DNA from: a virus
Length of the DNA: 64,000 nucleotides
Direction: 5' to 3' (one strand)
IMG/VR virus record: IMGVR_UViG_3300022602_004810
Location: 1 to 64,000 of that record
A model generated the notes under the pieces. That model was given only the letters and a program-made list of their open reading frames with translations. It ran no database searches and was not told the origin of the DNA. Position 1 is the stretch's first letter; each line of letters begins with the position of its first letter. Position numbers and translations under genes: made by a program. Below are positions 6,282-49,828 of this stretch, one piece after another.

Positions 6282-6983
6282 TTAATCAATCCTATCTAAA
6301 ATTTTTGTATTATTAAGACTAGCGGCTATTTTGCCATCGGGAATATTTTTCATAATTGTACTACCAGCCATTATCTTCACATCATTGCCAATTTTAAGAT
6401 TGCGGTTATGATATTTGTTTACAATTGTAGAACCTGCGCCAATCATTACATTATTGCCAAAATCAATATGTCCACCTACAAAACTGTACGGTGGCATAAC
6501 TAGATTTTCCCCAACGGTTACATCATGCCCTATACTTGACAAATTATCAATATAACTAAAATCACCAATTTTTGTCCTAGCACGTATTTGACAATGGCGT
6601 CCGATAACAATACCATTACCCATAATATCTAAGCTAGATTTATGAACATAAGCCAACGGATTGATTAGATTTCTAGTACTAAGACCTCGCTCACGAAAGA
6701 TGTTAATACGTTGGCGTCTCAGATTGTCACCGTGATGATCTGGGTTTGTTTTATTAATATGTCCTGCCCATCCACTACTTAGAAAGAAATCTAAATTCTT
6801 TATGTCGGCATCTGAAATTTCGTCTTCAGATCCAATAAATGGAATACCGTGGGTATGTTCAGTATTACCGTAAAAATATTTGTCATAGATACCAACTAAC
6901 TCAATATCCAATGCTTCAATAATTTCAAGGATAGTATCTAATCCGGATCTATATCCAATAAGTGCTAAAGGTTTTTTATTCAT
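6282..6983 (-). CDS. Sugar O/N-acyltransferase, NeuD/PglD-like (hexapeptide repeat)
   Basis: N-terminal Rossmann-like part, NLINPLAYV, hexapeptide repeats, IGHD motif. Confidence 0.8.
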   Translation of the reverse strand: MNKKPLALIGYRSGLDTILEIIEALDIELVGIYDKYFYGNTEHTHGIPFIGSEDEISDADIKNLDFFLSSGWAGHINKTNPDHHGDNLRRQRINIFRERGLSTRNLINPLAYVHKSSLDIMGNGIVIGRHCQIRARTKIGDFSYIDNLSSIGHDVTVGENLVMPPYSFVGGHIDFGNNVMIGAGSTIVNKYHNRNLKIGNDVKIMAGSTIMKNIPDGKIAASLNNTKILDRID

Positions 6984-10677: not shown

Positions 10678-12573
10678 TTATTCTCCTTTCTTAACTTCTG
10701 TAAATTCTGCATCAACTACCCCGTCATCTGATTGTGTTGACTCGGTAGTACCTGGTTGCACTTCTGGTTGTGGTGTAGGTTGACTAACAGCGGCCAATGC
10801 TTGTATTAGTTTACCAACTGTTTCTTGAATAGTCTGTACATCTTCTGCTTTAACAGCATCTTCTACAGCTTTAACAGCTGATTCAACTGATGTTTTTTGC
10901 TCGTCAGTTAAATTTTCATTTTCCTTAAGAGCTTTGTTAGCATCGTGAATTTGAGCATCTGCTACGTTTTTGGCTTGTACTAACTCAACAGCTTTTTTAT
11001 CAGCTTCTGCGTTGGCTTCTGCATCTTGTACCATTTTCTCAATTTCAGCTTCACTTAGACCACTGTTGGCTTTGATAGTGATCTTGTTTTCTTTGCCAGT
11101 GTTCTTATCTTTAGCTGATACTTTTAAGATACCATTAGCATCAATGTCAAGCGTGATTTCAATCTGTGGTTGGCCGCGACGTTGTGGTTCAATTCCTTCC
11201 AAATTAAACTGTCCGAGTACTTTGTTATCTCGAACAAATTCACGTTCACCTTGGGCAATTACCACAGTCACAGCTGGTTGGTTATCATCTGCTGTTGAGA
11301 ACACTTGACTAGCCTTAGTAGGAATAGTAGTATTCTTTTTAATCAACTTGGTCATAACACCACCAAGTGTTTCGATACCCAGTGATAATGGAGTAACATC
11401 TAGTAACAACACGTCTTGTTTATCACCAGCTAACACAGCACCTTGAATAGCCGCGCCTACTGCTACAGCTTCGTCTGGATTAACGTCTTTACGTGGTGCT
11501 TTGCCAAATAGTTGCTCAACAGCGGCTTGCACTTTGGGCATACGTGTTTGACCACCAACTAGAATAACTTCATCAATGTCTGCAGCTGTAACACCAGCGT
11601 CTTTTAATGCTACTTTACATGGCTCAATTGAACGAGTAATTAGTTCTTCAACCAATGATTCAAACTTACTACGTGTAATAGTCACATTTAAGTGTTTAGG
11701 ACCTGTAGCGTCCGCTGTAACATATGGTAAGTTTACAGTAGTTTGTGCTGAACTAGATAGTTCAATCTTAGCCTTTTCAGCCGCATCTTTCAAACGTTGT
11801 AGAGCTAAGACGTCTTTGCTTAGGTCAACACCACTTTCTTTCATGAACTCATCAATTACATAGTCCATTAAGCGTTGGTCAAAGTCTTCACCGCCAAGGA
11901 ATGTGTCACCATTGGTTGAAAGTACTTCGAATTGTTTGTCACCGTCAACGTTGGCAATTTCAATGATTGATACGTCAAATGTACCACCACCTAGATCATA
12001 TACAGCGATCTTACGATCCTTCTTATCACCCTTGTCTTCACCATATGCTAGTGCGGCCGCTGTTGGCTCATTGATGATACGTAGAACTTCTAGACCAGCA
12101 ATAGTACCCGCATCTTTAGTTGCTTGACGTTGTGCGTCATTGAAGTAAGCTGGTACAGTAATAACAGCCTGTGTTACTTCGTGACCTAGGTAATCTTCTG
12201 CTGTTTTCTTCATTTTTTTAAGAACTTCAGCTGAAATCTGTGGTGGTGCTAGTTTTTGTTCGTCAATTTGTACCCACGCATCACCGTTTGTGTTTTCCAC
12301 AATTTGATATGGCATTAGGTCAATATCTTTTTGTACAGCAGGTTCTTTAAATTTACGACCAATCAAGCGTTTTGCCGCATAGATTGTTTTCTTTGGATTT
12401 GTAACTGCTTGGCGTTTAGCACTTGCGCCAACTAAGACTTCGTCGCCATAGGCAACAATACTAGGTGTAGTACGAGCACCTTCGTTGTTTTCAATTACTT
12501 TTGGTTTGTTATTTTCAAGAATGGCAACACATGAGTTTGTGGTACCTAAGTCAATACCTATGATCTTAGACAT
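10678..12573 (-). CDS. dnaK: Chaperone DnaK (Hsp70)
   Basis: [35 protein letters not shown]-terminal DAEFTEV; betaproteobacteria-like signatures. Confidence 0.98.
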
Positions 12574-18774: not shown

Positions 18775-19116
18775 CTAATTAGTTACCCTTGTAAAGTCTA
18801 CAAAACCAATTTCTGTAATATCAACTTGTGCTGTGCCACCAGAAGTTAAGAATGCCACTTGTGGGCCTACTCCTGTAGCTACTACGTTACCTGCTCCACC
18901 CCATACATAACCAACGGTTTGTGTGCCGGGGCCACAGTTAATGTCACGAATAGTGTTTGCAGGAATCATAAAACAGTTACCTGAGTTATAAGCAACTGGA
19001 TTTTGACCTACTGCATAATATACAGCTACGTTGCTGATTACTTTGATTTTTGTACTGTTTAAGTTAACTGACACATTACTTGTACCAGCTTGACATATAA
19101 TATTGTATGCTGCCAT
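18775..19116 (-). CDS. Small beta-rich protein (paralogue of 19155..19427)
   Basis: KIKVISNVAVYYAVGQNPVA...CFMIPANT; TAAATA upstream. Confidence 0.6.
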   Translation of the reverse strand: MAAYNIICQAGTSNVSVNLNSTKIKVISNVAVYYAVGQNPVAYNSGNCFMIPANTIRDINCGPGTQTVGYVWGGAGNVVATGVGPQVAFLTSGGTAQVDITEIGFVDFTRVTN

Positions 19117-21334: not shown

Positions 21335-21363
21335 TTGACTTTTAGATCCTTTGAATATATAAT
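21335..21363 (+). promoter_or_regulatory. Sigma70 promoter (rightward of a divergent pair)
   Basis: TTGACT-17-TATAAT; ATG 7 nt downstream. Confidence 0.8.
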
Positions 21364-21370
21364 ATATAGT

Positions 21371-21586
21371 ATGAAGATTCTATTAGAACAACAAGGCGGA
21401 CATTTGGCAATGATTGTTGAACACAGTCTAAAGCCTCAATGGGACGCTGTAATTTATGATATAGCCGAAGAGCTTAAAGACCGCAAAGGTGTGCGCCGCA
21501 TGAGCTATGACACTTGGCATTGGGATCTACGTAAACAGCACGAAGCTGAAGAATATATAACTTATTTCTATTTGAAGCATGAATAA
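21371..21586 (+). CDS. Small paralogue-family protein
   Basis: ATG 21371 (the track's TTG start is the -35 box); ends ITYFYLKHE. Confidence 0.6.
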   Translation: MKILLEQQGGHLAMIVEHSLKPQWDAVIYDIAEELKDRKGVRRMSYDTWHWDLRKQHEAEEYITYFYLKHE

Positions 21587-21867
21587 TGGCAATAATACCT
21601 TACAAGACACCTAAGATTACTAAACTTGATGGTCGGTTCAAGTTCTATAACCGCGGCTTTAGGTACAAGGTAAGTTTTGACGCAATGAAAAACTACCAAT
21701 CATTTTTACGAGCATTAACCTGGTGTGAAAATGCCTGGGGTCCAGAACGTAAAGTATGGAATAGTAATTGGCTTGTTACCATAGCTGATAAAAATAAATG
21801 GTGGCGTGAGATCTATTTATGTCGTGAGGAAGATGTTACAATGATGTTATTGGTGGCAGGCGGATGA
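21586..21867 (+). CDS. Small paralogue-family protein
   Basis: TAATG overlap; ends IYLCREEDVTMMLLVAGG. Confidence 0.6.
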   Translation: MAIIPYKTPKITKLDGRFKFYNRGFRYKVSFDAMKNYQSFLRALTWCENAWGPERKVWNSNWLVTIADKNKWWREIYLCREEDVTMMLLVAGG

Positions 21868-22154
21868 CCTCAGGTATTACATACGGAAACGAAATAGATG
21901 GTCCGGTATACTTGGACATTAAGAGCAGTGATCAAGCGGCTCGTATTTTTATTAATTTTATAAGAGATATAGTCGGATATGTGCCCGATGATCCTGTTGT
22001 TGAAATTTCAGAGTACCAACGGGTCAAGGCCGCACTAGTTGAATATAACGCTGTGTATAGATTTAATCAGGCTAAATCAGGATATGTTCGTAAACATTTT
22101 ATACGCTTTGGCCAACCCCGAGACCTAACAGCATTTTTAATGAGATACTCATGA
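21864..22154 (+). CDS. Small paralogue-family protein
   Basis: ATGA overlap; ends IRFGQPRDLTAFLMRYS. Confidence 0.65.
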   Translation: MTSGITYGNEIDGPVYLDIKSSDQAARIFINFIRDIVGYVPDDPVVEISEYQRVKAALVEYNAVYRFNQAKSGYVRKHFIRFGQPRDLTAFLMRYS

Positions 22155-22181
22155 TAACCATAACAATCAAGATTATATATT

Positions 22182-22550
22182 ATGTCTTCACAAAATGATT
22201 ATCTAATTAACCGTCTTAAGAACATCAGTGCCGCGGTTGATGCCGCTAATGACTTATCGGCTACACAAAAAGATGAGTTCTACAAGGATCTGCCTAGACG
22301 TATAGATACTATCCTGGGTGAAGACAATCACCTACACAAATTAAAACAGTTAGCTGATGCTCGCACAGCATGGATGAAAGAATTCATCGATCCCGCCGCA
22401 GACTTCGACTTAAACACTTGGTCATTTGCCAATTGGCTGCGAGATCGTTGGGGTGTTGAACTGATCTACGACAACGAAACGCTTGGCTTGTCAGGATACG
22501 CTGTCGTAGATGCGCAAAAACATTTATTGTTTACTATGGTGTTTCCATAA
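22182..22550 (+). CDS. Small paralogue-family protein (divergent)
   Basis: Ends YAVVDAQKHLLFTMVFP. Confidence 0.55.
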   Translation: MSSQNDYLINRLKNISAAVDAANDLSATQKDEFYKDLPRRIDTILGEDNHLHKLKQLADARTAWMKEFIDPAADFDLNTWSFANWLRDRWGVELIYDNETLGLSGYAVVDAQKHLLFTMVFP

Positions 22551-22765
22551 TGGACCATAGATGCGTACAATTTGTTCCTTTTAAGGTAATACATCGTGCG
22601 GCTTTTGAATTAGATGAACATCGCCGCAGGTATGAAATTTGGCAAGATGAATTTGAACAACACTACAATGTCAAATTCGGTCAGTTACGAGCTGACATAG
22701 ATAGTTACTGTGTAATATTCCCTAGTGATGAAGACTATACTATGTTTATGTTGAGGTGGGCATGA
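22550..22765 (+). CDS. Small paralogue-family protein
   Basis: TAATG overlap; ends VIFPSDEDYTMFMLRWA. Confidence 0.7.
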   Translation: MDHRCVQFVPFKVIHRAAFELDEHRRRYEIWQDEFEQHYNVKFGQLRADIDSYCVIFPSDEDYTMFMLRWA

Positions 22766-22977
22766 AAGTTCCAATACCTGAAATACTATCAGCGTTTCAT
22801 AATGCCAATCAGGCTGTAATTGCCAAAGGCGGATTTGACTTAGAGCGACACCGACATAAAGATGCCTTTGAGCAACTACACAATGTTAAGATTATTCAAA
22901 GTGCATGGGGCAGTTGGGATGAATTGGTTTTCCCTAATAAACAAGCATATACTATGTTCCTATTGAGGTGGAGTTAA
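22762..22977 (+). CDS. Small paralogue-family protein
   Basis: ATG 22762 (ATGA overlap, GAGGTG SD); ends LVFPNKQAYTMFLLRWS. Confidence 0.7.
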   Translation: MKVPIPEILSAFHNANQAVIAKGGFDLERHRHKDAFEQLHNVKIIQSAWGSWDELVFPNKQAYTMFLLRWS

Positions 22978-23210
22978 TGGCATACTATTATAACGGAACA
23001 AGTCATTATATTAAAGTCACAGCCCGTGGTGACTACGATAGGTATCTAACAGCAGTTGCGTTTAAGAACGAAGTTGATGCTTGGTTAGAGGCCCATGAGA
23101 TCAATACTCTTTACGAAGATATGGATTATATCGTCAATGGTAAGTATGAATACCATTTCCTCTGTTTAAAAGAAGAACATGCTACTTTAGCAAAATTGAG
23201 GTGGTCATGA
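22977..23210 (+). CDS. Small paralogue-family protein
   Basis: ATG 22977 (TAATG overlap); ends LCLKEEHATLAKLRWS. Confidence 0.7.
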   Translation: MAYYYNGTSHYIKVTARGDYDRYLTAVAFKNEVDAWLEAHEINTLYEDMDYIVNGKYEYHFLCLKEEHATLAKLRWS

Positions 23211-23410
23211 ATCTAAGGAAAATATCTGGCAGTGATCGTGCTGGCATCTATGTAATAAGCCCTCACGAAGATGTCTACGCAGATGACTATAAAAAATTTA
23301 TCAATTGGTTAGAAGAGCATTGTCCAAATGAATATGAACTAGACCATACCTATTTAACCATCACCGCACATGCCGAGGTACTGTTGGCATTGACTTTTAA
23401 CTTTGTTTAG
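23207..23410 (+). CDS. Small paralogue-family protein (divergent)
   Basis: ATG 23207 (ATGA overlap); INWLEEHCP; ends AEVLLALTFNFV. Confidence 0.6.
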   Translation: MNLRKISGSDRAGIYVISPHEDVYADDYKKFINWLEEHCPNEYELDHTYLTITAHAEVLLALTFNFV

Positions 23411-23418
23411 TGTATAAT
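23390..23418 (+). promoter_or_regulatory. Sigma70 promoter
   Basis: TTGACT-17-TATAAT; ATG 7 nt downstream. Confidence 0.8.
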
Positions 23419-23425
23419 ACAAATT

Positions 23426-24319
23426 ATGAAAATAGCACTGGGTAGTGACCTACACTTAGAATTTGGTGGAATAGAACTTAAAAACACAGAATCAGCTGAC
23501 GTACTTGTACTTGCTGGTGATATCTGTGTGGCCCGTGACATTGAATTAGCTAGTGCTAATATGTATGCTCAACGCAAACGTGCTGAACGTTACTTGGCAT
23601 TCTTTGAACAAGTATCAAAGGAGTTTCCTAAGGTTGTCTACATCATGGGCAATCACGAACACTATCACGGTGACTTCAAATATACCTACGATATACTTAA
23701 AACAGCTTTAGGGCATTTGGAAAACGTCCACGTGTTAGAAAAAGAAACCCTAGTCATTAATGATGTTACTATCATTGGTGCTACTGTCTGGACTGACATG
23801 AATGGTAGTGATCCTACTACCTTGCGTGAAATGCCGCACATGATGAATGACTTCCATGGTGTAGATAATAGTAATAATATGATACAACGCAAAGTTCCGT
23901 TATATCATTATGATGACGAAACTAAGGTTCAAACAGTTACTTCACACAAGTATAAAGACTATCCAAGCAAGTTTAGTCCTAAAGACGCTGTAGAAGATCA
24001 TGATAAGGCCTTGGATTATATTAGCCATGTGGTTGCCGAACGTGCCGAAGAAAAGTTTGTGGTTGTATCACATCACTGTCCAAGTGAGCAGAGTGTACAT
24101 GACAAATACCGGGCAGATACCATTATGAATGGTGGCTTCCGTAGCGACCTAGATGATTTTATTAGTTATCGTCCACAGATTAAACTTTGGTGTCATGGTC
24201 ATACTCATGAAGAATTTGACTATGTTCTAGGTGAAACACGGGTGGTATGTAACCCACGTGGCTATGTAGGACATGAGCCTCGTGCTGGTTATTTCCAACT
24301 AAAATATCTAGAGGTATAA
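23426..24319 (+). CDS. Calcineurin-like metallophosphoesterase
   Basis: SDLH, LAGD, GNHE, HH, HGHTH, NPRGY. Confidence 0.92.
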   Translation: MKIALGSDLHLEFGGIELKNTESADVLVLAGDICVARDIELASANMYAQRKRAERYLAFFEQVSKEFPKVVYIMGNHEHYHGDFKYTYDILKTALGHLENVHVLEKETLVINDVTIIGATVWTDMNGSDPTTLREMPHMMNDFHGVDNSNNMIQRKVPLYHYDDETKVQTVTSHKYKDYPSKFSPKDAVEDHDKALDYISHVVAERAEEKFVVVSHHCPSEQSVHDKYRADTIMNGGFRSDLDDFISYRPQIKLWCHGHTHEEFDYVLGETRVVCNPRGYVGHEPRAGYFQLKYLEV

Positions 24320-24582
24320 TGAAACACACTCTTACCTTGTCAGTTCGTAGTTGGCAAATTCTCCAAGAGCGGATCCTTGTGGACTATGGTCGCGCTACCT
24401 TGCTGATCAGTTGGCGATTAAAGGCTAATCTAGGATTCACTGTGCGCAAGCATACGGACTATGACCAAGATGGTTGGCAAATTACCACCATTCGACTAGA
24501 CTTTTACGATGAACAACTACAGACCTTGTTCTTGTTACGCTACGGCGAGTTTGTTAGCAATTATGAAAATACCCAAGAATAA
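24319..24582 (+). CDS. Small paralogue-family protein
   Basis: LDFYDEQLQTLFLLRYG near the C-terminus. Confidence 0.65.
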   Translation: MKHTLTLSVRSWQILQERILVDYGRATLLISWRLKANLGFTVRKHTDYDQDGWQITTIRLDFYDEQLQTLFLLRYGEFVSNYENTQE

Positions 24583-24877
24583 AGCCCTAGAACAATTACA
24601 CGAAGAAGACATTTGGAGTGATGAGTGGGAAGAATGTGTTTACCGCAGTCAGCAAAATGATTGGAGTGATTATGACGAACACCCATGGGTTTGGTATATG
24701 GAAAAAAGTATACGCATAGGCGAAGGTTGGCATTTAGTTAAGATTAGTCCCGATCACAAAGACGTCACAGTTATCTACTATCTTAAATCAATAGATGCTA
24801 AATTCAAACATAGTAAAAATGAGTTTTTAATAGAAGATCATCAACACGCAATGATGGTAACATTAAAGTATGCGTAG
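24563..24877 (+). CDS. Small paralogue-family protein
   Basis: Probable ATG 24563; ends FLIEDHQHAMMVTLKYA. Confidence 0.6.
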   Translation: MKIPKNKALEQLHEEDIWSDEWEECVYRSQQNDWSDYDEHPWVWYMEKSIRIGEGWHLVKISPDHKDVTVIYYLKSIDAKFKHSKNEFLIEDHQHAMMVTLKYA

Positions 24878-25208
24878 AGTCATGGCCAGGGGAAGACAAG
24901 TGGGTAAATCAACATTAAGTTTAGCAGATCAGATGCTACAACATCAATCACAGTTGATGCAGCGTAGTATTGATCGTATGGTCATGGATGAGATTTGGTC
25001 TTTATACAAATACCGTGTAAGCAAATCATGGACTGATCGTAGGGGCCGCAAGATGCATCGTATAGCTGCCAATGATGAAGTACGCAAATGGTTAGACACA
25101 GAACACAGTCAATACGGTGTAAGTAACCCTGAGTGGTGGAAGTTTGAGAAACAAATTAACATCACTGACAAATTATTCACACTATTGGTCTTAAGGTTTG
25201 CTGAATGA
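24870..25208 (+). CDS. Small paralogue-family protein
   Basis: Ends NITDKLFTLLVLRFAE. Confidence 0.6.
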   Translation: MRRVMARGRQVGKSTLSLADQMLQHQSQLMQRSIDRMVMDEIWSLYKYRVSKSWTDRRGRKMHRIAANDEVRKWLDTEHSQYGVSNPEWWKFEKQINITDKLFTLLVLRFAE

Positions 25209-25414
25209 CTCCGTGGTTATATTTAAATGGTCTAATTAGTTCAGATCGCGCACCAGAGCACAATGAAGTATGGATGACTGCTAAGTTACAGGCTAAGTGG
25301 CCCGGTGATTATACTGTAGTTAAAGATATAGACTACCAATGGCATTATGTTGAATATAAAATGGTATTCGACAATCCCGCAGACGAAACAATGTTTAGGT
25401 TAAAATACGCATGA
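25205..25414 (+). CDS. Small paralogue-family protein
   Basis: ATGA overlap; ends MVFDNPADETMFRLKYA. Confidence 0.7.
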   Translation: MTPWLYLNGLISSDRAPEHNEVWMTAKLQAKWPGDYTVVKDIDYQWHYVEYKMVFDNPADETMFRLKYA

Positions 25415-25689
25415 GAGCGGCACCAGTAGAGCGACAACAAGTAGAACAACGGTTACTCAACGAAGGGTGGCAGGCTGTTCGCATACCCAAAGTGGAAGGT
25501 GATAACACGTGGAGCATTTACAATATGACGACGTGGTGCGAGCATACTCTTGGGCTAGGCAGACCAGAACCAGGCATTATTGGGCTCGGTTTGGGGGATG
25601 TTTGGTATGCGTTTAATTGGTTTGGATATTATAATTTTTACTTTAAACATGCCAAAGATGCCACAGCATTCGCCCTGAGGTGGGCATGA
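25411..25689 (+). CDS. Small paralogue-family protein
   Basis: ATGA overlap; ends FYFKHAKDATAFALRWA. Confidence 0.7.
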   Translation: MRAAPVERQQVEQRLLNEGWQAVRIPKVEGDNTWSIYNMTTWCEHTLGLGRPEPGIIGLGLGDVWYAFNWFGYYNFYFKHAKDATAFALRWA

Positions 25690-25922
25690 GTATATTAGAT
25701 GGCGCTAATGGACGTAAGTTTATAGCATCAGGACCGTTTGATCACGAGATGCCCTATTACTATATAGTAATAGCCGACATTAGTCATTGGATGAAGAATG
25801 AAAAGGCCATATATGCGTGGATGGATGAGAATTTACCCAGAGGTAGACTTCATCAAGAAGGTATGACTCTGGCATTAGAAACAGAAGAACAACTAACAGC
25901 ATTTTTATTAAGGTGGGCATAA
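25686..25922 (+). CDS. Small paralogue-family protein
   Basis: ATG 25686 (ATGA overlap); ends LALETEEQLTAFLLRWA. Confidence 0.7.
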   Translation: MSILDGANGRKFIASGPFDHEMPYYYIVIADISHWMKNEKAIYAWMDENLPRGRLHQEGMTLALETEEQLTAFLLRWA

Positions 25923-26413
25923 TGAAGACAATATTTTTAGACATGGATGGAGTAGTAAGTGACTTTGATGCTTACGCTGAACCACTAGTGGGATTTAGAA
26001 CACCAGGCGGTGTTAGGTATGATCAGGAAGGTTGGGAAAAGATTTCTGCAGAACCTAGATTATATAGTAAGCTAGAAACATGTCCTGGTGCTGATCGATT
26101 GGTAACTACTGTTCAAGATCTAGCAGAAGAATTTGGCTACGATGTTAAGTTTTTAACTGCTATCCCTAGACAAAATGATGTGCCTTGGGCATTTCATGAT
26201 AAAACAGAATGGATCAAAGCACGCTGGCCTAATATCCCTGTATGGTTTGGTCCTTACAGCAATGACAAGCAACAACACTGTCGCCCAGGTGATATTTTAA
26301 TTGACGACCGTCCTAGTAACATCGATGAATGGAATGCCGCAGGTGGTATTGGAATATTACACGTTAATTATAACGTAGATGAAACGCTAGTTAAACTATC
26401 TAGTGTAGTGTAG
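25922..26413 (+). CDS. HAD-family 5'(3')-deoxyribonucleotidase-like protein
   Basis: IFLDMDGV, FLTA, ILIDDRPSN; ATG 25922 in a TAATG overlap. Confidence 0.85.
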   Translation: MKTIFLDMDGVVSDFDAYAEPLVGFRTPGGVRYDQEGWEKISAEPRLYSKLETCPGADRLVTTVQDLAEEFGYDVKFLTAIPRQNDVPWAFHDKTEWIKARWPNIPVWFGPYSNDKQQHCRPGDILIDDRPSNIDEWNAAGGIGILHVNYNVDETLVKLSSVV

Positions 26414-26642
26414 CGTTTGCTGGACGAATATTTTCAGCGGATAGTTTAACTAAGAAGTTGATAATATCTTCTATGTTAGGATTAACTTCATCATCGTCTC
26501 CTAGAGTTTCTGGAAAACTAATGCCTTTAAGTTGACCTTCAGAGTTTATAACAAAAACAAAATCTTCTGGCTGTATATCATTAAGAACATCGTATTCATC
26601 TAGTTCTACTTCTATATCTAGTTCTTCTGTAGTTTTTGCCAT
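26400..26642 (-). CDS. Acidic hypothetical protein
   Basis: ATG 26642 with AAGGAG SD. Confidence 0.6.
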   Translation of the reverse strand: MAKTTEELDIEVELDEYDVLNDIQPEDFVFVINSEGQLKGISFPETLGDDDEVNPNIEDIINFLVKLSAENIRPANATLH

Positions 26643-26652
26643 TACAATCTCC

Positions 26653-28908
26653 TTATCCCAATCCTTGTGGGCTCTTGCCACTCATTTGTGAATCTAATTC
26701 TGCTTTCATTTGAGGTAAAGCCTGTAATATTGTATACGCTGACTGTGTAGGATCGGACGAATTCGGATTAGCCTTAACTGTAGCATAAACAACATCGTAG
26801 GTGCCTGTAAACATTACCGCATAAGGTCCCCATCCATGGGATGAAGCTTCGCTACCATTTATTATTCGCCACAGATTATCAGTAGATGAATTAGCTATAG
26901 CTTCTATGGTTACTGTACCACCACTGGTACGTTGGAAATCTCTAGAAACTGTAATTGGATATGCCACATTTGTTGCGCCTGGTTCGGGTGGTGGCGGAGT
27001 AGTCTGTACTGGAGGAATACCGTTATCAGCAAGTAGTTTATTATTCTTACCTTCTGCTAGACTGGCTTTAATTGCTTCTCCACCAGGAGTTGCTGTATTA
27101 GCTAAATTATGCAGTATATCAGAAACGCCGCTACCGCTGGTGTCTGCCCCAAATTTATGCAGACTTTTAGCAAAGCTCATCGAAGTTCCGAGCGTATTTG
27201 GTGGCGGGCTAGTTAAATCAACACCTGCAACATTCGTTATCAGGTTTACCGCTCCTGCAATCGATGTAGATAGCAATGCTATAGCACTTGCTGCATCAGT
27301 TGTAACAGTTTTTAAAAAACTAGTAATACTAGGACCACCTGCTAGATGCTGAGTAAAGTCAGTCATATTAGGTAATCCCAATGGACCACTACCAGAGCCT
27401 GTCATTACATTTAGTGTAGGTTGATTTTTTGTTATTAAACTGTTTAAACTAGGAAAGGCCGCTGTGTGTAATGGTGTCTGAACTGACTGGATTTGATTAA
27501 ATAATGACCCAGCGGCACCTGCATCTTTTAATGTTCCTGCACCTATATCTGTTAGATGTGATGTTAACCCACTAACACCTCCCGTTAATCCAGCAATTGC
27601 AGATGGATCAGCTAGTTTAGTCGGATCACCTAAATCTTTAAGATTTTGAATGCCGCCTGTTAATGAAGGTAAACTTTGTCCAGGCGATAGTGATGCTCCC
27701 ATGGCTGTACTAGGTGTACTAAAACCAGTAGTAGTAAGACTATCTGCCGCAGATGTACTATTGCCTAGAACCAGTGTGCCTGCTTGCGAAGCAAACAAGT
27801 TCTTTTGTGTTTTACCAGCATTGGTTAAATCAGTACTAGCAGCATTTGCAGAATTTAATGCTGATTCAACGTCATTATTTCTAAAATTAACTAACTGTAG
27901 TTTAACAGCATCATCAGGTAACGGTGATATTTCATTTTTAGAAATGTTATTTGCATCTGTAAAACATTGTTGGAAATCTTGATATTCGGGTCCTAATATT
28001 GTAGGTTTAATTGCTGTATATTCTGCAAGACTTGTAGTACTTTGTATGAGAGGAATAGCCGTACCGTGTACCCAATCTACCCAGTTGTTTGCTCTAGTAA
28101 TAATATCCTGTAGTTCAGCTAGAATAGCATCAGCATTACTATCCCCTGTAGATTCAGTAGCGGCTATCTCGGGTGCTACATCAAATTGGTCAGCTACAAC
28201 ACTTAAAGCACTAGGGTCAGTAATGCCGCTCATTACTTGATTAATCTTGTCTGCGTATATAGGATTATCTAGATCATCTATAGGCACACCTGCATCAGCT
28301 AATCTTCTATTAACACCTGTGGCATTGGCTAGTTTATTATCAGTTAACGATTTAACTAATCCAAGACTACTACCAAAATCCTTAACATCGCCACCATTGT
28401 ACATAGTGCCTGTGGCCTGCATAAGTGCGCCAGCCGCTGGCAAACTACCTAAAGCATTTGACATGCCACGATCTGCAGCACTGCCCATGTCAGTAATACC
28501 TGGGCCAAGATCACTATAGTTCATGTTAGCCATAAAGTCAGATGCTTTACGTAGCTCTTGCGAATCTTGTATATGACCATGAAGTTGACTAAAGAAACTA
28601 CCAAAAGCCGCATGATTTGGCGAACTACCAAATCCCATGCTAGTATGAAATGAAGTTAAACTAGACAGTGTAGCTGTTGCAGCCGCACTATTTGCATCAG
28701 CTACGTTTGCTGATATTGTCTGTAACTGTGCTACTACATTGGCCACAGACGGTGCTAAACAAAGTGCTGAACCTTGATTAATTCCAATCATTGCGGTTAA
28801 TGTAGCAGGCGTTAGGGCCGATGCAGCTTGCCCTAACGTAGTTTTTTGATTTTCAGCTATTACAGTGCTAGCTTGCCCTGTAACAAGGCTTATATCGTGT
28901 TCAGACAT
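26653..28908 (-). CDS. Large hypothetical protein, probably virion-associated
   Basis: 751-aa A/S/G/T-rich ORF with no catalytic motif recognised. Confidence 0.5.
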   Translation of the reverse strand: MSEHDISLVTGQASTVIAENQKTTLGQAASALTPATLTAMIGINQGSALCLAPSVANVVAQLQTISANVADANSAAATATLSSLTSFHTSMGFGSSPNHAAFGSFFSQLHGHIQDSQELRKASDFMANMNYSDLGPGITDMGSAADRGMSNALGSLPAAGALMQATGTMYNGGDVKDFGSSLGLVKSLTDNKLANATGVNRRLADAGVPIDDLDNPIYADKINQVMSGITDPSALSVVADQFDVAPEIAATESTGDSNADAILAELQDIITRANNWVDWVHGTAIPLIQSTTSLAEYTAIKPTILGPEYQDFQQCFTDANNISKNEISPLPDDAVKLQLVNFRNNDVESALNSANAASTDLTNAGKTQKNLFASQAGTLVLGNSTSAADSLTTTGFSTPSTAMGASLSPGQSLPSLTGGIQNLKDLGDPTKLADPSAIAGLTGGVSGLTSHLTDIGAGTLKDAGAAGSLFNQIQSVQTPLHTAAFPSLNSLITKNQPTLNVMTGSGSGPLGLPNMTDFTQHLAGGPSITSFLKTVTTDAASAIALLSTSIAGAVNLITNVAGVDLTSPPPNTLGTSMSFAKSLHKFGADTSGSGVSDILHNLANTATPGGEAIKASLAEGKNNKLLADNGIPPVQTTPPPPEPGATNVAYPITVSRDFQRTSGGTVTIEAIANSSTDNLWRIINGSEASSHGWGPYAVMFTGTYDVVYATVKANPNSSDPTQSAYTILQALPQMKAELDSQMSGKSPQGLG

Positions 28909-44149: not shown

Positions 44150-45123
44150 ACTTTTCCGCAATTAAACGTGCAATATACTGGTTTAGTTTCTTCTAATGTT
44201 TCAAAAAAGTTAACGGTTTTTGGTTCAGTTAAAATTTTTGATAGTGTAGTTTTACTTATATCATACAAATCTTTATTTTTATAAAAATCACTTTTATAAT
44301 AAAAACGGTAATCTCCTGCCCAACAACAGGGAGAATAAAACCCTCTAGCAGATACAAAATGCATCGAATTTGATACTTTACATATCGGACGAATATCTAA
44401 TGTTGAACCACTTAGCCAATTTTTTTTAGATTCATTTCTGTTTCCGACATGAGCTCCATTATACAACACCTCGGTAACTGAATTATTTAACAACTTGATC
44501 TCAGAATCATTATGAAATTCAACAAAAGATGATGGTTTAAGCCAATCATCTTTTACCCATCTATCACTATTAATTAACATAAAATCATCCATGCCCAATT
44601 GAATGCTTAGTTCTTTGGCTTCATTGATTGTACTTTCATTATAACTGAAAAGAATACATTTCCAAACAACTTTGGCTGAACCGTTAACTAATACATTTAT
44701 GCCATTTTTAATACTATCCCAATTTGCATTTATTCGATAGTTTGTAAAGTTATCTGGAGTTCCATCAATTGAAAAAGAAACTATATCGTTACAATCTAAT
44801 AACTCATTGAGCTGTTCCCACCAATCAACAGTTTTATGGCTGCCATTGGTATGTATATTAACTATTGCCCCCGATGTTTTTAAAAATTTTATTAATTCGA
44901 TTAGTTGTGGGTAATATATAGGATCACCGTCATTGCCAATTAAACTTACCAAAACCCCAGTAAGATCTATATCTAAGAATTTTTTTAATTGCTCTAAATC
45001 TAAATTTTGATTAGTCCATTTATTTGGAAATTGATTAATAAACTCAGTACGACTGCATCGTGGACACTTTAAGGTACACATGTTTGTAGTCTCGATATGT
45101 ATCCCCCGCAATTTATCAAGCAT
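44146..45123 (-). CDS. Radical SAM protein (paralogue of 41772..42770)
   Basis: CTLKCPRC, GNDGD, TNGS, IDG, SPCC...CTFNC. Confidence 0.9.
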   Translation of the reverse strand: MLDKLRGIHIETTNMCTLKCPRCSRTEFINQFPNKWTNQNLDLEQLKKFLDIDLTGVLVSLIGNDGDPIYYPQLIELIKFLKTSGAIVNIHTNGSHKTVDWWEQLNELLDCNDIVSFSIDGTPDNFTNYRINANWDSIKNGINVLVNGSAKVVWKCILFSYNESTINEAKELSIQLGMDDFMLINSDRWVKDDWLKPSSFVEFHNDSEIKLLNNSVTEVLYNGAHVGNRNESKKNWLSGSTLDIRPICKVSNSMHFVSARGFYSPCCWAGDYRFYYKSDFYKNKDLYDISKTTLSKILTEPKTVNFFETLEETKPVYCTFNCGKV

Positions 45124-46150
45124 GTAACTTTTTCCTCATTAGTTCAATTTTTAACTTACTTGATTCTCTAGCATCTAAAATGCTCTTAAGCACAAATAGT
45201 TTACCATATTTAACCACAGCTTCATTAATATCTTTACAGGTCTCTTGCCATACAGGAAAGCTAGCCGACCAGCCATATTCCATTGCGTTTTGTAGTAATT
45301 TTGCACCCGCCTTATCACGATCTGCCACTACAATAACTTCTTTGCCTAAGCTCTCAATGATTTCAGCTTGAGTTTCACTACACTCATTGCTCATGACTGC
45401 AACACCATCTACTGACATCGCATCAAATGGGCCTTCACAGACTATGACAAACTTACTATCAGGTAGTTGATTGTTTATGTTGAACACAAAGTTAGGTTCA
45501 TAGTTGCTATAGTATTTAGGCTTAACGCCATCTACAAACGCACGGCTAGTGTAGCCAATGGTCCGACCTTCCCAAATCATAGGAATGATCACACGTTGAT
45601 GCAGGCTGTGTTCTGTGCTATCAGTCCAATAAAAGTCATACTTATCGTAGTTCATTTTACGACTGTTTGTGTAGTCAACAGCTGAGTTTAGTAGTGGGGG
45701 TACATTTTTAAAATCACTCAATGTGTAAAATGATATGAATTGCTGAAAGCTAAGTGCATCTTTGGGCAGTTCTCTGACCTTAAACTCAATCTTTTCTTCA
45801 GCTTCAGCTTTAACTTCTTCTGGGTTAACTAGTTCACGGATACGAATAGCTTCAATAACTAGGCGTTTAATGTCGTTTTCATCAGCACCTAACCAACGTA
45901 AGAGTTTACGGAATTTGAATGTTAAGTGACGACCTGGTTGATAACTAGCTTTGAAGTTACAATTGAAACACGAATATGAGATACTCCCGTCAGCATTAGC
46001 CGTAAGTCCGCCTCTGCCTCTAGTGTCGGCTGTTTCGCCGTTGTGTACGCAACATGGAGCATTTCCTGAAATCCAGCCAGATGGACTAGACTTTGTTTTG
46101 CGTCCAGTTTTCCATAAGGCTACAGTAAAATCTGATATTATTTTAATCAA
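45116..46150 (-). CDS. DNA primase (T4 gp61-like)
   Basis: Zn-binding CCVH...CFNC; TOPRIM EGPFD, DRD, KDIN. Confidence 0.9.
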   Translation of the reverse strand: MIKIISDFTVALWKTGRKTKSSPSGWISGNAPCCVHNGETADTRGRGGLTANADGSISYSCFNCNFKASYQPGRHLTFKFRKLLRWLGADENDIKRLVIEAIRIRELVNPEEVKAEAEEKIEFKVRELPKDALSFQQFISFYTLSDFKNVPPLLNSAVDYTNSRKMNYDKYDFYWTDSTEHSLHQRVIIPMIWEGRTIGYTSRAFVDGVKPKYYSNYEPNFVFNINNQLPDSKFVIVCEGPFDAMSVDGVAVMSNECSETQAEIIESLGKEVIVVADRDKAGAKLLQNAMEYGWSASFPVWQETCKDINEAVVKYGKLFVLKSILDARESSKLKIELMRKKLHA

Positions 46151-47211: not shown

Positions 47212-48364
47212 GTTTTACGATACTAATATAACCTGCGGTGTTATTATAAAATCCTAGGTTGGTAATGCTTGCACCATTAAATGTGCCGCTTAGATCAAAC
47301 TGTCCGTCGCTGGTTGCCACTGATGTAGCATTAGCATCAATATAACTACCGCCACCGCCGCCTGAGTCAATGGTTGGAGCAATTCCGCCATATGCACCAC
47401 CACCACCTGAGTAGCCACCACCACCGCCCCCAGTGATAGGACCAGATCCACCACCGCCACCAAATCCACCAAAACTTGTGCTAGGTGGTACATAACTAGT
47501 AGAATATATAGCACCGTTTGCGCCAAATTGGAAACTATTACCGCCGCCACCATATGAGCCACCAACAGCCACCTGAGTATTATTTGACCAAGTGGTAGTT
47601 GCTGTTATAAATGAGCCATTGCCTGACCATCCGCCGCCACCACCACCATCGTAGGTGTTGGTACTAGTTGTACCTATGACGTTGACGTGTGTGTTACCGC
47701 CTTGCCCAGCAACACCACCAGGAGCACCAAAGCGTAGAGTGGTTGTAGTAGCACCAAGGTTACCAGCACTGTTACCACCACGACGAGTGGTCACACCATA
47801 GCCACCTGGTAATATATTTGTGTTACTTGTCCAGGCGCCAGGTCCGCCGCCGCCACCTGCTATGATCAGCGGACTAACATTAGCAAAACCTTGAGCTATA
47901 TTGCCTAAGGCGACAAAACTACCACCACCACCACCAGGACTAGAATAGGTACTAGGCTGTGTAGTATTAGCACTAGGTTGTCCTACTACCAGAGTAATTT
48001 TTTGTCCGCGTCGTAGATTAAACACGCCTTGTATTACAGCGCCGCGACCGTGTGCATTACCGTAGGTAGTGTTTCCAGCAAAAGTACTAATCACTCCACT
48101 GCGACTGCCAGCCGCTGTAATACGATACGGACCTGTATGCGGTACTGTCCATACTTGATATCCTTGCCAAGCGCCTGGTACTGTAAAGAAGTTTGTATTA
48201 GTTAACCAAGTATTACCTGCGTTACTGTATGTATTGTATAAATTACCTAGTGTAGGTCCGTATTGTCCTACAATATTTGAGGTAAAGTTAAACATAGAGA
48301 ATGCGTATAGATCAGTTAGATCGTATACAGTACCACCTATAATTGTTCCACCTAATATTATCAT
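47207..48364 (-). CDS. Glycine-rich virion protein
   Basis: GYQVWTVP.TG.Y.ITAAG and many poly-Gly tracts (GGGGGSF, GGGGYSGG). Confidence 0.7.
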   Translation of the reverse strand: MIILGGTIIGGTVYDLTDLYAFSMFNFTSNIVGQYGPTLGNLYNTYSNAGNTWLTNTNFFTVPGAWQGYQVWTVPHTGPYRITAAGSRSGVISTFAGNTTYGNAHGRGAVIQGVFNLRRGQKITLVVGQPSANTTQPSTYSSPGGGGGSFVALGNIAQGFANVSPLIIAGGGGGPGAWTSNTNILPGGYGVTTRRGGNSAGNLGATTTTLRFGAPGGVAGQGGNTHVNVIGTTSTNTYDGGGGGGWSGNGSFITATTTWSNNTQVAVGGSYGGGGNSFQFGANGAIYSTSYVPPSTSFGGFGGGGGSGPITGGGGGGYSGGGGAYGGIAPTIDSGGGGGSYIDANATSVATSDGQFDLSGTFNGASITNLGFYNNTAGYISIVKL

Positions 48365-49086
48365 TATATTCCAAACCTTGAACGAACTGCTTGATAGTTT
48401 TGATTGATCTGTGTATTACCAAAGGCAGTGTTGTAAATGCGGACAACACCTAGTCCACCACCCCAATAATCACCAAGGTCCCAACGACGCATCAACACTA
48501 TACCACTTTGTGAACTGGTAGATGAACCCGTGTAGGCAAGTGTGCTGACCTGCGTATTATTTACAAACAGTTTAATTGTCGTGCCATCATAGGTACCCAC
48601 AATGTGATTCCAAGTATTAGTAGTCAATGAATAAGCTGGAGTAGCATGCCAACTACCGTCCCAGAATCCGTTTTGTAAGCCACCAGAAACATCAACGCCA
48701 AGGCTAAAGTTAATCCTACTAGTAACCCCAGGATACTGTTCTGTGACGATACAAGGATCTGCCCCTGTGTTAGTACCAGTGTAGTAGTGCCATGTTTCCA
48801 CAGTCCAGCTTGGTAAATTACCAAAACTTTGATTTGGACTATAAGCGTATTGACTGCTAGCTGGTACGAAATTAATATATCCACCGTTGTTGGTACTGAA
48901 TGTAGGACTGCCGCTTAGAGTAAATGATAAGCCGTTGACCGTATCACGCCAAGTGGTGTTACCAGAGAAACTACTGGTCAGGCCAGCATCTAAGTTCATC
49001 ACAAGGTTAGCTGTGATATAGCCAATGGTGCTAACAATGTTTATCCCACCACCTATAGTAATTCCTGATCCTATTGTTAATGCCAT
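48364..49086 (-). CDS. LamG/concanavalin A-like lectin domain protein
   Basis: LDAG...TWRD, WNHIVGTYDG, RIYNTA, QNY..RFG. Confidence 0.8.
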   Translation of the reverse strand: MALTIGSGITIGGGINIVSTIGYITANLVMNLDAGLTSSFSGNTTWRDTVNGLSFTLSGSPTFSTNNGGYINFVPASSQYAYSPNQSFGNLPSWTVETWHYYTGTNTGADPCIVTEQYPGVTSRINFSLGVDVSGGLQNGFWDGSWHATPAYSLTTNTWNHIVGTYDGTTIKLFVNNTQVSTLAYTGSSTSSQSGIVLMRRWDLGDYWGGGLGVVRIYNTAFGNTQINQNYQAVRSRFGI

Positions 49087-49087
49087 A

Positions 49088-49828
49088 TTATACACTATAC
49101 CTAAATCGTAATGCGCTGAAATTTTGATTGACTTCTAAAGCTGACAAGGCGCGATTGTAGATCTTCCAAGCACCAATGTAACCATTGAAGTATGGAAAGC
49201 CATTGATACCTATGTAGTCATTACCAGGGAAGCCCATGCTTAAAAACGTACTACCAGGATTGCCTTTTGCGCCATCTGTTGATCCTGCGAATGCCCCATT
49301 GACATAGGTTTTAAGTGTTGGACTAACTGTGACATCATAGGACATCACAATGTGATACCAATTGGTTGATGTCCAACCAGGACCTGTGACATATCCAGTA
49401 TTGTATAGGCCCATATTGATCGTACCGTTGGTAAAGCCCATTTGGTTATCAGTCCAGCCACCGTAATTGTATCCAGGATCCCATTGACCCCATTCTGCTA
49501 TCAGTGTACCTGGTGAGCCCGCACTTAAATTTCGTGCCCATACATCAAATGTAAATGCTGAGTCTAAATCTGCGCCATAACCAACACCACCAACATAGCC
49601 AAAGTATTGACTACTGGCGCTGGCTAATTGTAACACTGTAAATCCGTTGACTTTGGCTGTACTAGGACTATTAAACAAGGTAGCATCATAACCATTACCA
49701 CTGCTGTCAGCAAGAGTACTACCACTGATGCCCGTGGCGGCATCGTAGTTGGCATATAGTCCCGCAGTGACGATATTAAAATGGTCTACTATGTAAGTGC
49801 CTGTGAGTGTTACCCCTTGTATGATCAT
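49088..49828 (-). CDS. LamG/concanavalin A-like lectin domain protein
   Basis: DSSGNG, WYHIVMSYD, KIYNRALS, QNF..RY. Confidence 0.8.
   Translation of the reverse strand: MIIQGVTLTGTYIVDHFNIVTAGLYANYDAATGISGSTLADSSGNGYDATLFNSPSTAKVNGFTVLQLASASSQYFGYVGGVGYGADLDSAFTFDVWARNLSAGSPGTLIAEWGQWDPGYNYGGWTDNQMGFTNGTINMGLYNTGYVTGPGWTSTNWYHIVMSYDVTVSPTLKTYVNGAFAGSTDGAKGNPGSTFLSMGFPGNDYIGINGFPYFNGYIGAWKIYNRALSALEVNQNFSALRFRYSV

Follow-up and report, generated by a model that had tools for sequence, protein, structure and literature searches.

Terminal arginine codons of small phage genes probably double as the ribosome-binding sites of the genes that follow

The window analyzed here, a stretch of 64,000 nucleotides, comprises the first 64 kb of the single 87,067-bp contig of virus record IMGVR_UViG_3300022602_004810, a phage genome of 39% G+C that carries most genes of the window on the - strand. 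On the + strand lies a block of small genes (21371-26413), several of which end in a Leu-Arg-Trp (L-R-W) motif shortly before a stop codon that overlaps the start codon of the next gene. We propose, with a probability of about 0.85, that the bases of the Arg codon in this motif form part of the ribosome-binding site, or Shine-Dalgarno (SD) sequence, for the gene downstream. The proposal is based on the observation that the synonymous codon choice of the upstream gene tracks the downstream start in this genome, across 146 junctions in the genome and related loci, and within single orthologue groups. This is a known effect in an unusually clear natural case and not a new mechanism; the small addition is a second mode seen in relatives, in which the same two codons, in the form NNA TGG, contain the start codon of the next gene.

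Position, frame and pairing of the junctions

The motif is encoded as TTGAGGTGG at 22751, 22963 and 23196, as CTGAGGTGG at 25675 and as TTAAGGTGG at 25908, with a related L-R-F version, TTA AGG TTT, at 25191-25199. All six copies are in frame, as third- or fourth-last codons of small + strand genes, and one or two more codons separate each copy from a stop codon that overlaps the next ATG as ATGA or TAATG. These ATGs, at 22762, 22977, 23207, 25205, 25686 and 25922, begin 5 or 8 nt past the AGG. An initial annotation of this DNA had located the six motifs at exactly these positions, in frame and before an overlapping ATG, and the window sequence agrees with it throughout.

The first junction (22751..22765) consists of TTGAGGTGG followed by GCA TGA and ends gene 22550-22765 (..MFMLRWA), the next ATG at 22762 lying in an ATGA overlap, while the second (22963..22979), TTGAGGTGG followed by AGT TAA, ends gene 22762-22977 (..MFLLRWS) and joins it to the ATG at 22977 through TAATG. 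The third (23196..23210), with TCA TGA after the same nine bases, ends gene 22977-23210 (..LAKLRWS) in an ATGA overlap with the ATG at 23207. The fourth (25191..25208) is the L-R-F version followed by GCT GAA TGA at the end of gene 24870-25208 (..LVLRFAE), with the next ATG at 25205 and a weaker AAGGT site. In the fifth (25675..25689), CTGAGGTGG and GCA TGA end gene 25411-25689 (..AFALRWA), again with an ATGA overlap (ATG 25686), and in the sixth (25908..25924), TTAAGGTGG and GCA TAA end gene 25686-25922 (..AFLLRWA) and form TAATG with the ATG of a nucleotidase gene at 25922. The same-strand stop and start thus overlap or nearly touch at 6 of the 6 listed junctions, and more generally 52 of the 130 heuristically called genes of the genome have a same-strand gene starting behind them within -11..+5 nt.

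At five of these junctions a GAGGTGG or AAGGTGG complementary to the 3' end of 16S rRNA lies inside the upstream ORF, 5 or 8 nt before the ATG, with predicted pairing energies of -8.2 to -10.3 kcal/mol when scored against the canonical anti-SD tail. The value of -10.3 kcal/mol, obtained for the starts at 22762, 22977, 23207 and 25686, is the strongest among the 52 tightly spaced pairs; the start at 25922 scores -8.2 and that at 25205 -4.7 kcal/mol. For comparison, the mean is -4.6 kcal/mol over 129 scored starts and -3.0 over 1663 internal ATGs. The initial annotation took both GAGGTG and TAAGGT to be complementary to the 16S 3' end; in the case of TAAGGT, pairing with the usual 16S tail extends over TAAGG only. 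A possible weak and distant site is furnished by a further AGG at 25397..25414 (+ strand), which encodes the Arg of ..MFRLKYA in the context TTT AGG TTA, 11 nt before the ATG at 25411 (-3.6 kcal/mol).

Two further + strand genes of the block act as internal controls, having been singled out earlier as copies that are not directly before a next start and that use other Arg codons, a description that proved correct on both counts. In gene 21864-22154 (..AFLMRYS) the Arg codon at 22143..22145 is AGA, and the ATG of the next gene lies 27 nt past the stop; in gene 24319-24582 (..LFLLRYG) the codon at 24538..24540 is CGC, and the motif is internal, 13 codons before the stop.

Copies of the degenerate 9-mer YTRAGGTGG number six in the window as against 1.65 expected, a count reached by 2 of 100 shuffles, and the sixth copy (50443, + strand) lies within a - strand gene. 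By itself this count is thus only moderately out of the ordinary, and the case rests on frame, spacing and codon statistics. The program-made ORF list starts the downstream genes at the in-frame GTG within AGGTGG; the ATG appears the better candidate, since it alone has a ribosome site at a suitable spacing. A possible masking of the SD through local RNA folding was also tested and dropped. The predicted unpaired probability of the site is 0.31-0.54 at the five R-W junctions versus 0.29-0.53 with shuffled flanks, and only that of 25686 is clearly less unpaired than its shuffled counterparts (0.38 vs 0.53 +/- 0.05), giving no consistent signal.

Arginine codon usage across the genome

Over the 130 ORFs of the whole 87,067-bp genome, AGG accounts for 60 of 1121 Arg codons (5.4%) and is the second-rarest, CGG (23/1121) being the rarest. 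In gene bodies its share of the Arg codons is 46 of 1066. Among the last six codons of a gene it is 14 of 30 where a same-strand gene follows within -11..+5 nt (Fisher p 3.5e-11 against bodies) and 0 of 23 where such a tight follower is lacking. The initial impression that AGG is uncommon here other than in the motif is thus borne out by genome-wide counts. Within the array, AGG codons placed 3-5 codons before the stop number 7/14. Outside the seven genes of the + strand array, AGG still forms 7 of 23 Arg codons in the last six codons before a tight follower, one of the seven being a further member of the family on the - strand at genome positions 67040-67288, beyond the window; hence the bias applies to closely packed genes of this phage in general and is not peculiar to the family. 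Genes outside the family that have AGG in this position are found on the - strand at 6282-6983, 18775-19116, 45116-46150, 48364-49095 and 49088-49828.

Codon switching in related phages

Eighty related loci were fetched using the phosphoesterase gene of the block as an anchor and a further 95 (23 viral, 72 metagenomic) using the product of gene 25686-25922; the genome and these 175 loci together yielded 146 distinct R-W junction sequences. Where a start lies 5-9 nt past the Arg codon, this codon is AGG in 91, AGA in 9 and CGN in none of 100 distinct junctions. Junctions in which the ATG is embedded in the motif use AGA (19) or CGA (4 of 23), those with nothing downstream use AGG once and AGA and CGN four times each (nine in all), and those with the next ATG 10-45 nt away use AGG in 5 of 14. 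The difference between 91/100 and 1/9 corresponds to a Fisher p of 5e-7, given here uncorrected for the relatedness of the sequences because only a few phylogenetic contrasts are usable and these are not significant (see below). The codon preceding Arg points in the same direction, given that it ends in G at 72 of the 100 junctions with a start 5-9 nt on (TTG 48, CTG 13, ATG 11), whereas TTG and CTG together constitute 19% of Leu codons genome-wide; a G-ending codon before AGG lengthens the pairing to GAGGTGG.

The same pattern can be followed within the orthologues of gene 25686-25922. In 27 of 91 tree rows AGG TGG is followed by ATGA or TAATG, and behind this one end stand 10 different downstream genes, which fits the earlier suggestion that each gene carries the ribosome-binding site for whatever follows it. 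In other orthologues the gene is the last of its operon, and its stop overlaps the stop of a convergent gene. Five of six such operon-end clades use CGG, CGT, CGC, CGA or AGA: CGG in L006; CGT in L007, L089 and L090; CGT again in L109; CGA in L085-L088; and AGA, AGA, CGC and CGT in the clade of L098, L099, L123, L124 and L125. Two further cases agree with this pattern. The first is that of L163 and L164, a single lineage with an ATGA overlap inside a clade of AGA and embedded ATGs, in which the codon is AGG. Likewise, the orthologue of gene 21864 in L001 combines AGG with an ATGA overlap, as against AGA and a 27-nt gap in the window copy.

A second mode of using these codons emerges among the orthologues of 25686, in which the motif reads NNA TGG and the inner ATG opens the next gene, the first codon being AGA, AAA, CAA, ACA or, once, CGA. 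This mode is seen in distant orthologues in the range L126-L168 (e.g. L136 at ~700-720, L137 and L141) and does not occur in the window. The two codons here precede the last residue and the genes overlap by 8-11 nt; the encoded amino acid varies among R, K, Q and T and the third base stays A. In L167 and L170, where no gene starts at this point, ACT or TCC takes the place of NNA.

Several observations weigh against the proposal that the Arg codon serves the next gene. One operon-end clade (L081, L082, L106 and L107) keeps AGG; its protein is 95% identical to the window copy and it is nested among copies followed by the nucleotidase gene, and these loci look like cases of recent loss of the downstream gene. 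AGA is found despite an ATGA overlap in 9 of the 100 spaced junctions, and the resulting AGATGG holds an in-frame ATG; in the spaced AGA junctions examined (L092, L093, L119, L120, L121 and L175) an in-frame ATG is present two or three codons upstream. Only four independent contrasts lie on well-supported branches, of which about three are concordant, none discordant and one tied, such that a sign test is not significant. Further, several junctions of the same array have a weak SD or none (-0.9 to -5.7 kcal/mol), implying that an SD is not obligatory here. Finally, the gene calls are heuristic, and the anti-SD tail was taken to be canonical, from which that of the host may differ.

With these points taken into account, the following scheme appears to explain the data best. 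The genes are packed stop on start, and the ribosome-binding site of a downstream gene must accordingly sit inside the last codons of its upstream neighbor. Arg-Trp written as AGG TGG after a G-ending Leu or Met codon reads GAGGTGG and would pair, 5-8 nt ahead of the ATG, with the 3' end of 16S rRNA. As the comparison of relatives shows, selection on downstream initiation fixes the otherwise rare AGG, and the amino acids of the tail are held by selection on the protein, R/K and W/Y/F being kept with other codons where nothing follows. Upon loss of the downstream gene, AGG is replaced by CGN or AGA, and in some relatives the same two codons, as NNA TGG, provide the start codon directly. The site might hold either a free 30S subunit or a ribosome that is completing the upstream gene, which would then start the next gene; a gene of this family would hence bring a strong ribosome site to any gene landing behind it.

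In this system one codon pair would meet two demands, a conserved protein end and a translation start signal, in many natural replicates, with synonymous codons flipping as predicted upon gain or loss of the downstream gene. Such junctions call for caution in assigning starts, given that gene finders choose the GTG inside AGGTGG, and "silent" recoding of phage genomes at these codons may not be silent. The arrangement also helps explain how tightly packed phage gene arrays could remain expressed during turnover of their content. A more speculative extension, which we consider rather doubtful, is that the L-R-W tail is a two-use adaptor (AGG TGG site or NNA TGG start) and that this is why the family spread widely in phage variable regions: genes could be inserted, deleted and reordered without non-coding spacers or loss of expression, with occasional crossovers in AGGTGG(G)..ATGA helping to create new orders.

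Gene order, breakpoints and the shared 9-mer

Gene order in the block is strongly reshuffled among relatives with phosphoesterases (PE) 73-85% identical. In terms of gene groups, the window has the order 9-10-11-12-13a-13b-14-15-PE-17-18-19-20-21-22-NT5C, L001 has 52-22-11-21-12-86-13b-14-15-10-PE-43, and L007 has 41-52-19-12-PE-17-13-22. The blocks of DNA homology between the window and L001 have both their boundaries only a few nt from start/stop overlaps, as in 25406-25689 and 25686-25924. In addition, the junctions at 22752-22765 and 25676-25689 have 14 identical nucleotides in common, and L106 has a joint directly after AGGTGG(G), between a gene body of the window type and a tail of the operon-end type. 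These features would be expected if the shared 9-mer (with ATGA) were mainly a recombination joint for cassette swaps and AGG were kept as part of that joint, as the initial annotation had suggested in part.

However, most of the breakpoint evidence points away from this explanation, which we regard as unlikely. Homology blocks terminate at junctions that have the 9-mer and at others that lack it: of the 71 distinct junctions upstream of the 25686 cassette, no more than 11 (~15%) contain AGGTGG, and junctions devoid of the motif, such as 52->22 in L001 and 49->22 in L006, are also breakpoints. One locus is seen in three states, namely with a 65-aa gene of the LRW type (L091:2300-2505), cleanly without it from stop to start (L092:740-770), and with the gene gone while its last five codons, comprising the 9-mer and the GTG start, are kept as a non-coding spacer before the next gene (L120:1480-1505). 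The ends of the L091/L092 indel thus fall at stop and start, outside the 9-mer, and the L120 spacer argues for selection having kept a ribosome site and not for a crossover within the 9-mer. Synonymous Leu codons agree between sub-families in 0.24 of pairs compared to 0.26 expected, as judged with a crude filter for "unrelated" pairs (shared 3-mers), and thereby show no sign of the homogenization that exchange through the 9-mer would leave; gene conversion of the motif was rejected as a candidate on the same grounds. A recombination joint also leaves unexplained the loss of AGG where no gene follows. Since viable rearrangements must respect gene ends, this requirement alone would explain why breakpoints fall at gene junctions, and a special role of the 9-mer does not appear to be needed. 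The earlier idea of a recombination point at the 9-mer is accordingly not supported: the mapped breakpoints look unrelated to it, an outcome that the initial annotation had itself named as refuting, though the L106 joint and a deletion that spares the 9-mer leave the idea a small probability.

It is also conceivable that AGG acts as a slow, rare codon which pauses the ribosome before the stop, for the sake of folding or coupling, independently of pairing with 16S rRNA. The rarity of AGG, its location 3-4 codons before the stop and the lack of a tRNA gene in the window are compatible with pausing. Nevertheless, this is very improbable in light of four observations. The G-ending bias of the preceding codon lengthens the pairing and bears no relation to tRNA supply; the still rarer CGG is found at none of the 100 spaced junctions; the 9-mer is kept in L120 where it is not translated; and unrelated coupled genes, whose neighboring codons differ, show an equal enrichment of AGG at their ends.

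The C-terminal tail as a protein motif

Most genes of the block end in a conserved, probably helical tail of the form F-x-L-[RK]-[WYF]-x-stop. The proteins may be viewed as an undescribed superfamily with this tail in common, apart from which the sub-families can hardly be aligned. In profile comparisons, an hhalign probability of 50% or more is reached by 30 of the 105 motif-cluster pairs and by none of 126 control pairs, and only 2 of the 105 remain once the last 15 residues are removed. The disappearance of this similarity, together with the placement of the motif always at the very end of genes, might be taken to mean that the nucleotide signal came first and that L-R-W is a mere translation of a ribosome site and start, with no role in the protein. 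This is hardly credible, since R/K and W/Y/F persist with codons that do not pair, both in the window (AGA TAC and CGC TAC; the LMRYS, LLRYG and LKYA copies) and at operon ends (CGT, CGC, CGG or CGA followed by TGG). Moreover, neither F73 nor W77 varies among 29 aligned orthologues of gene 25686, conservation extends about 8 residues further upstream (D-A-T-x-F) than any ribosome site would, and the motif is internal in gene 24319-24582. The tail is hence both a protein and a nucleotide motif.

Simple inheritance of AGG from a common ancestor of paralogous genes, in the absence of selection, is the least probable explanation: the genes do look like old paralogues, as in the match between 22550 and 22762, but the other synonymous positions of the motif are randomized between sub-families, AGG is lost in five of six operon-end clades and present in the SD-spaced L163/L164 lineage inside an AGA clade, and unrelated genes show the same bias. 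Excess synonymous agreement between sub-families is seen only at Arg (0.58 vs 0.31) and at Phe (0.78 vs 0.58). The tail Phe (position -3) is written TTT more uniformly than codon usage predicts in the genome and L001-L103, and an A/U-rich stretch shortly before the ribosome site may be what is favored here.

The sole clear pairwise similarity within the array is that between genes 22550-22765 and 22762-22977 (40% over 60 aa, E 2e-10), which are probably products of a tandem duplication. Searches of Pfam and PHROG recovered no family for 14 small array proteins, and neither a PDB sequence search nor the protein atlas put a name to the small array proteins; the 105 homologue clusters of the 25686-25922 product are all unnamed. 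At most, a reading of the sequences gives the impression of a beta-alpha-beta-alpha order of elements. Beyond the window, on the - strand, lie additional small genes that carry this tail, namely 66774-67049 (..ILKFGA), 67040-67288 (..LVLRWP) and 84633-84830 (..FRLKYADLSN), of which 67040-67288 ends in TTA AGG TGG, CCG and TAATG, overlapping the next gene.

Comparison with known systems

Intragenic SD motifs have been described as important at ATGA gene pairs (Huber et al. 2019, PMC6728339), and the constraint that intragenic SD sites place on the upstream gene has long been noted (PMC2784483). The junctions reported here resemble such pairs, and the known cases of termination-reinitiation coupling (Huber et al. 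2019; Palleja et al.), in their 4- or 1-nt stop/start overlap and in having the SD in the last upstream codons, where it constrains the upstream coding sequence. They differ in that the SD falls on a conserved protein motif of a whole phage gene family, one tail being reused, and in that codon switching is seen among natural orthologues with and without a downstream gene, the coupling itself being a prediction.

Close parallels are offered by Escherichia coli, in which an AGG of secE lies within the ribosome site of nusG and recoding to CGU failed (Napolitano et al. 2016, 10.1101/069385); other rare AGR codons that resist recoding owing to their place in the next gene's ribosome site include those in dnaT for dnaC and in folC for dedD (10.1101/069385). 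In these cases, as probably in the phage, an AGG near the C-terminus doubles as a downstream ribosome-binding site for which CGU is not an acceptable synonym. They are, however, single experimental cases from one bacterium, whereas the present evidence is comparative and spans 146 junctions in uncultured phages.

A different form of modularity is known from T4-type phages, in which PeSL cassettes, consisting of an early promoter and a stem-loop, mediate modular shuffling in hyperplastic regions (Arbiol et al. 2010, PMC2839356). Common to both systems are arrays of early genes, small and non-essential, in which close relatives differ in gene order and content, with a short regulatory element repeated at the boundaries. 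In contrast to PeSLs, which are described as non-coding promoter-terminator units with demonstrated recombination, the element considered here is coding and translational, and its junctions have no stem-loop or terminator. The rearrangement end-points mapped here fall both at junctions that have the 9-mer and at junctions that lack it.

The + strand block and its surroundings

The block at 21371-26413 is an early-type, highly variable region of small and very diverged genes, comprising about 14 small genes (67-122 aa), a calcineurin-like phosphoesterase and an NT5C-type nucleotidase. The first run of small genes (21371..23410, + strand) has likely starts at 21371, 21586, 21864, 22182, 22550, 22762, 22977 and 23207. 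It is followed by the calcineurin-like metallophosphoesterase gene (23426..24319, + strand; Pfam PF00149, 44.1 bits), by the second run (24319..25922, + strand), with starts at 24319, 24563, 24870, 25205, 25411 and 25686, and by the nucleotidase gene (25922-26413, + strand; Pfam PF06941, 42 bits). When the array was compared at the nucleotide level with 50,697 phage records, neither the near nor the distant search mode returned a match, and the phage is known from metagenomes alone.

The + strand of the array has only two strong promoter-like sites, both facing the block and both resembling sigma-70 sites, one (21335-21363) before the first run and the other (23390-23418) before the phosphoesterase gene. 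By their match to the consensus they fit early transcription by the host polymerase. The second (TTGACT, 17 nt, TATAAT) falls within the final codons of gene 23207-23410, and its bases are kept in L001, though another gene is inserted behind it there. Terminator-like hairpins were not detected at the array junctions, their counts being no higher than in shuffles. No tRNA gene was found within the 64-kb window, so that a phage tRNA for AGG is not an explanation within these 64 kb.

At 26400-26413 the nucleotidase gene and a - strand gene (26400-26681) converge with a 14-nt overlap. In relatives that have no nucleotidase gene, the stop of the 25686 orthologue shares TTAG or TTAA with the stop of the convergent gene (L006:2379-2382 and L007:4230-4233). 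Elsewhere in the window (10678-12573, - strand) the phage encodes a DnaK/Hsp70 protein of 631 aa, for which tblastn matches with 66-71% identity are annotated as chaperone DnaK.

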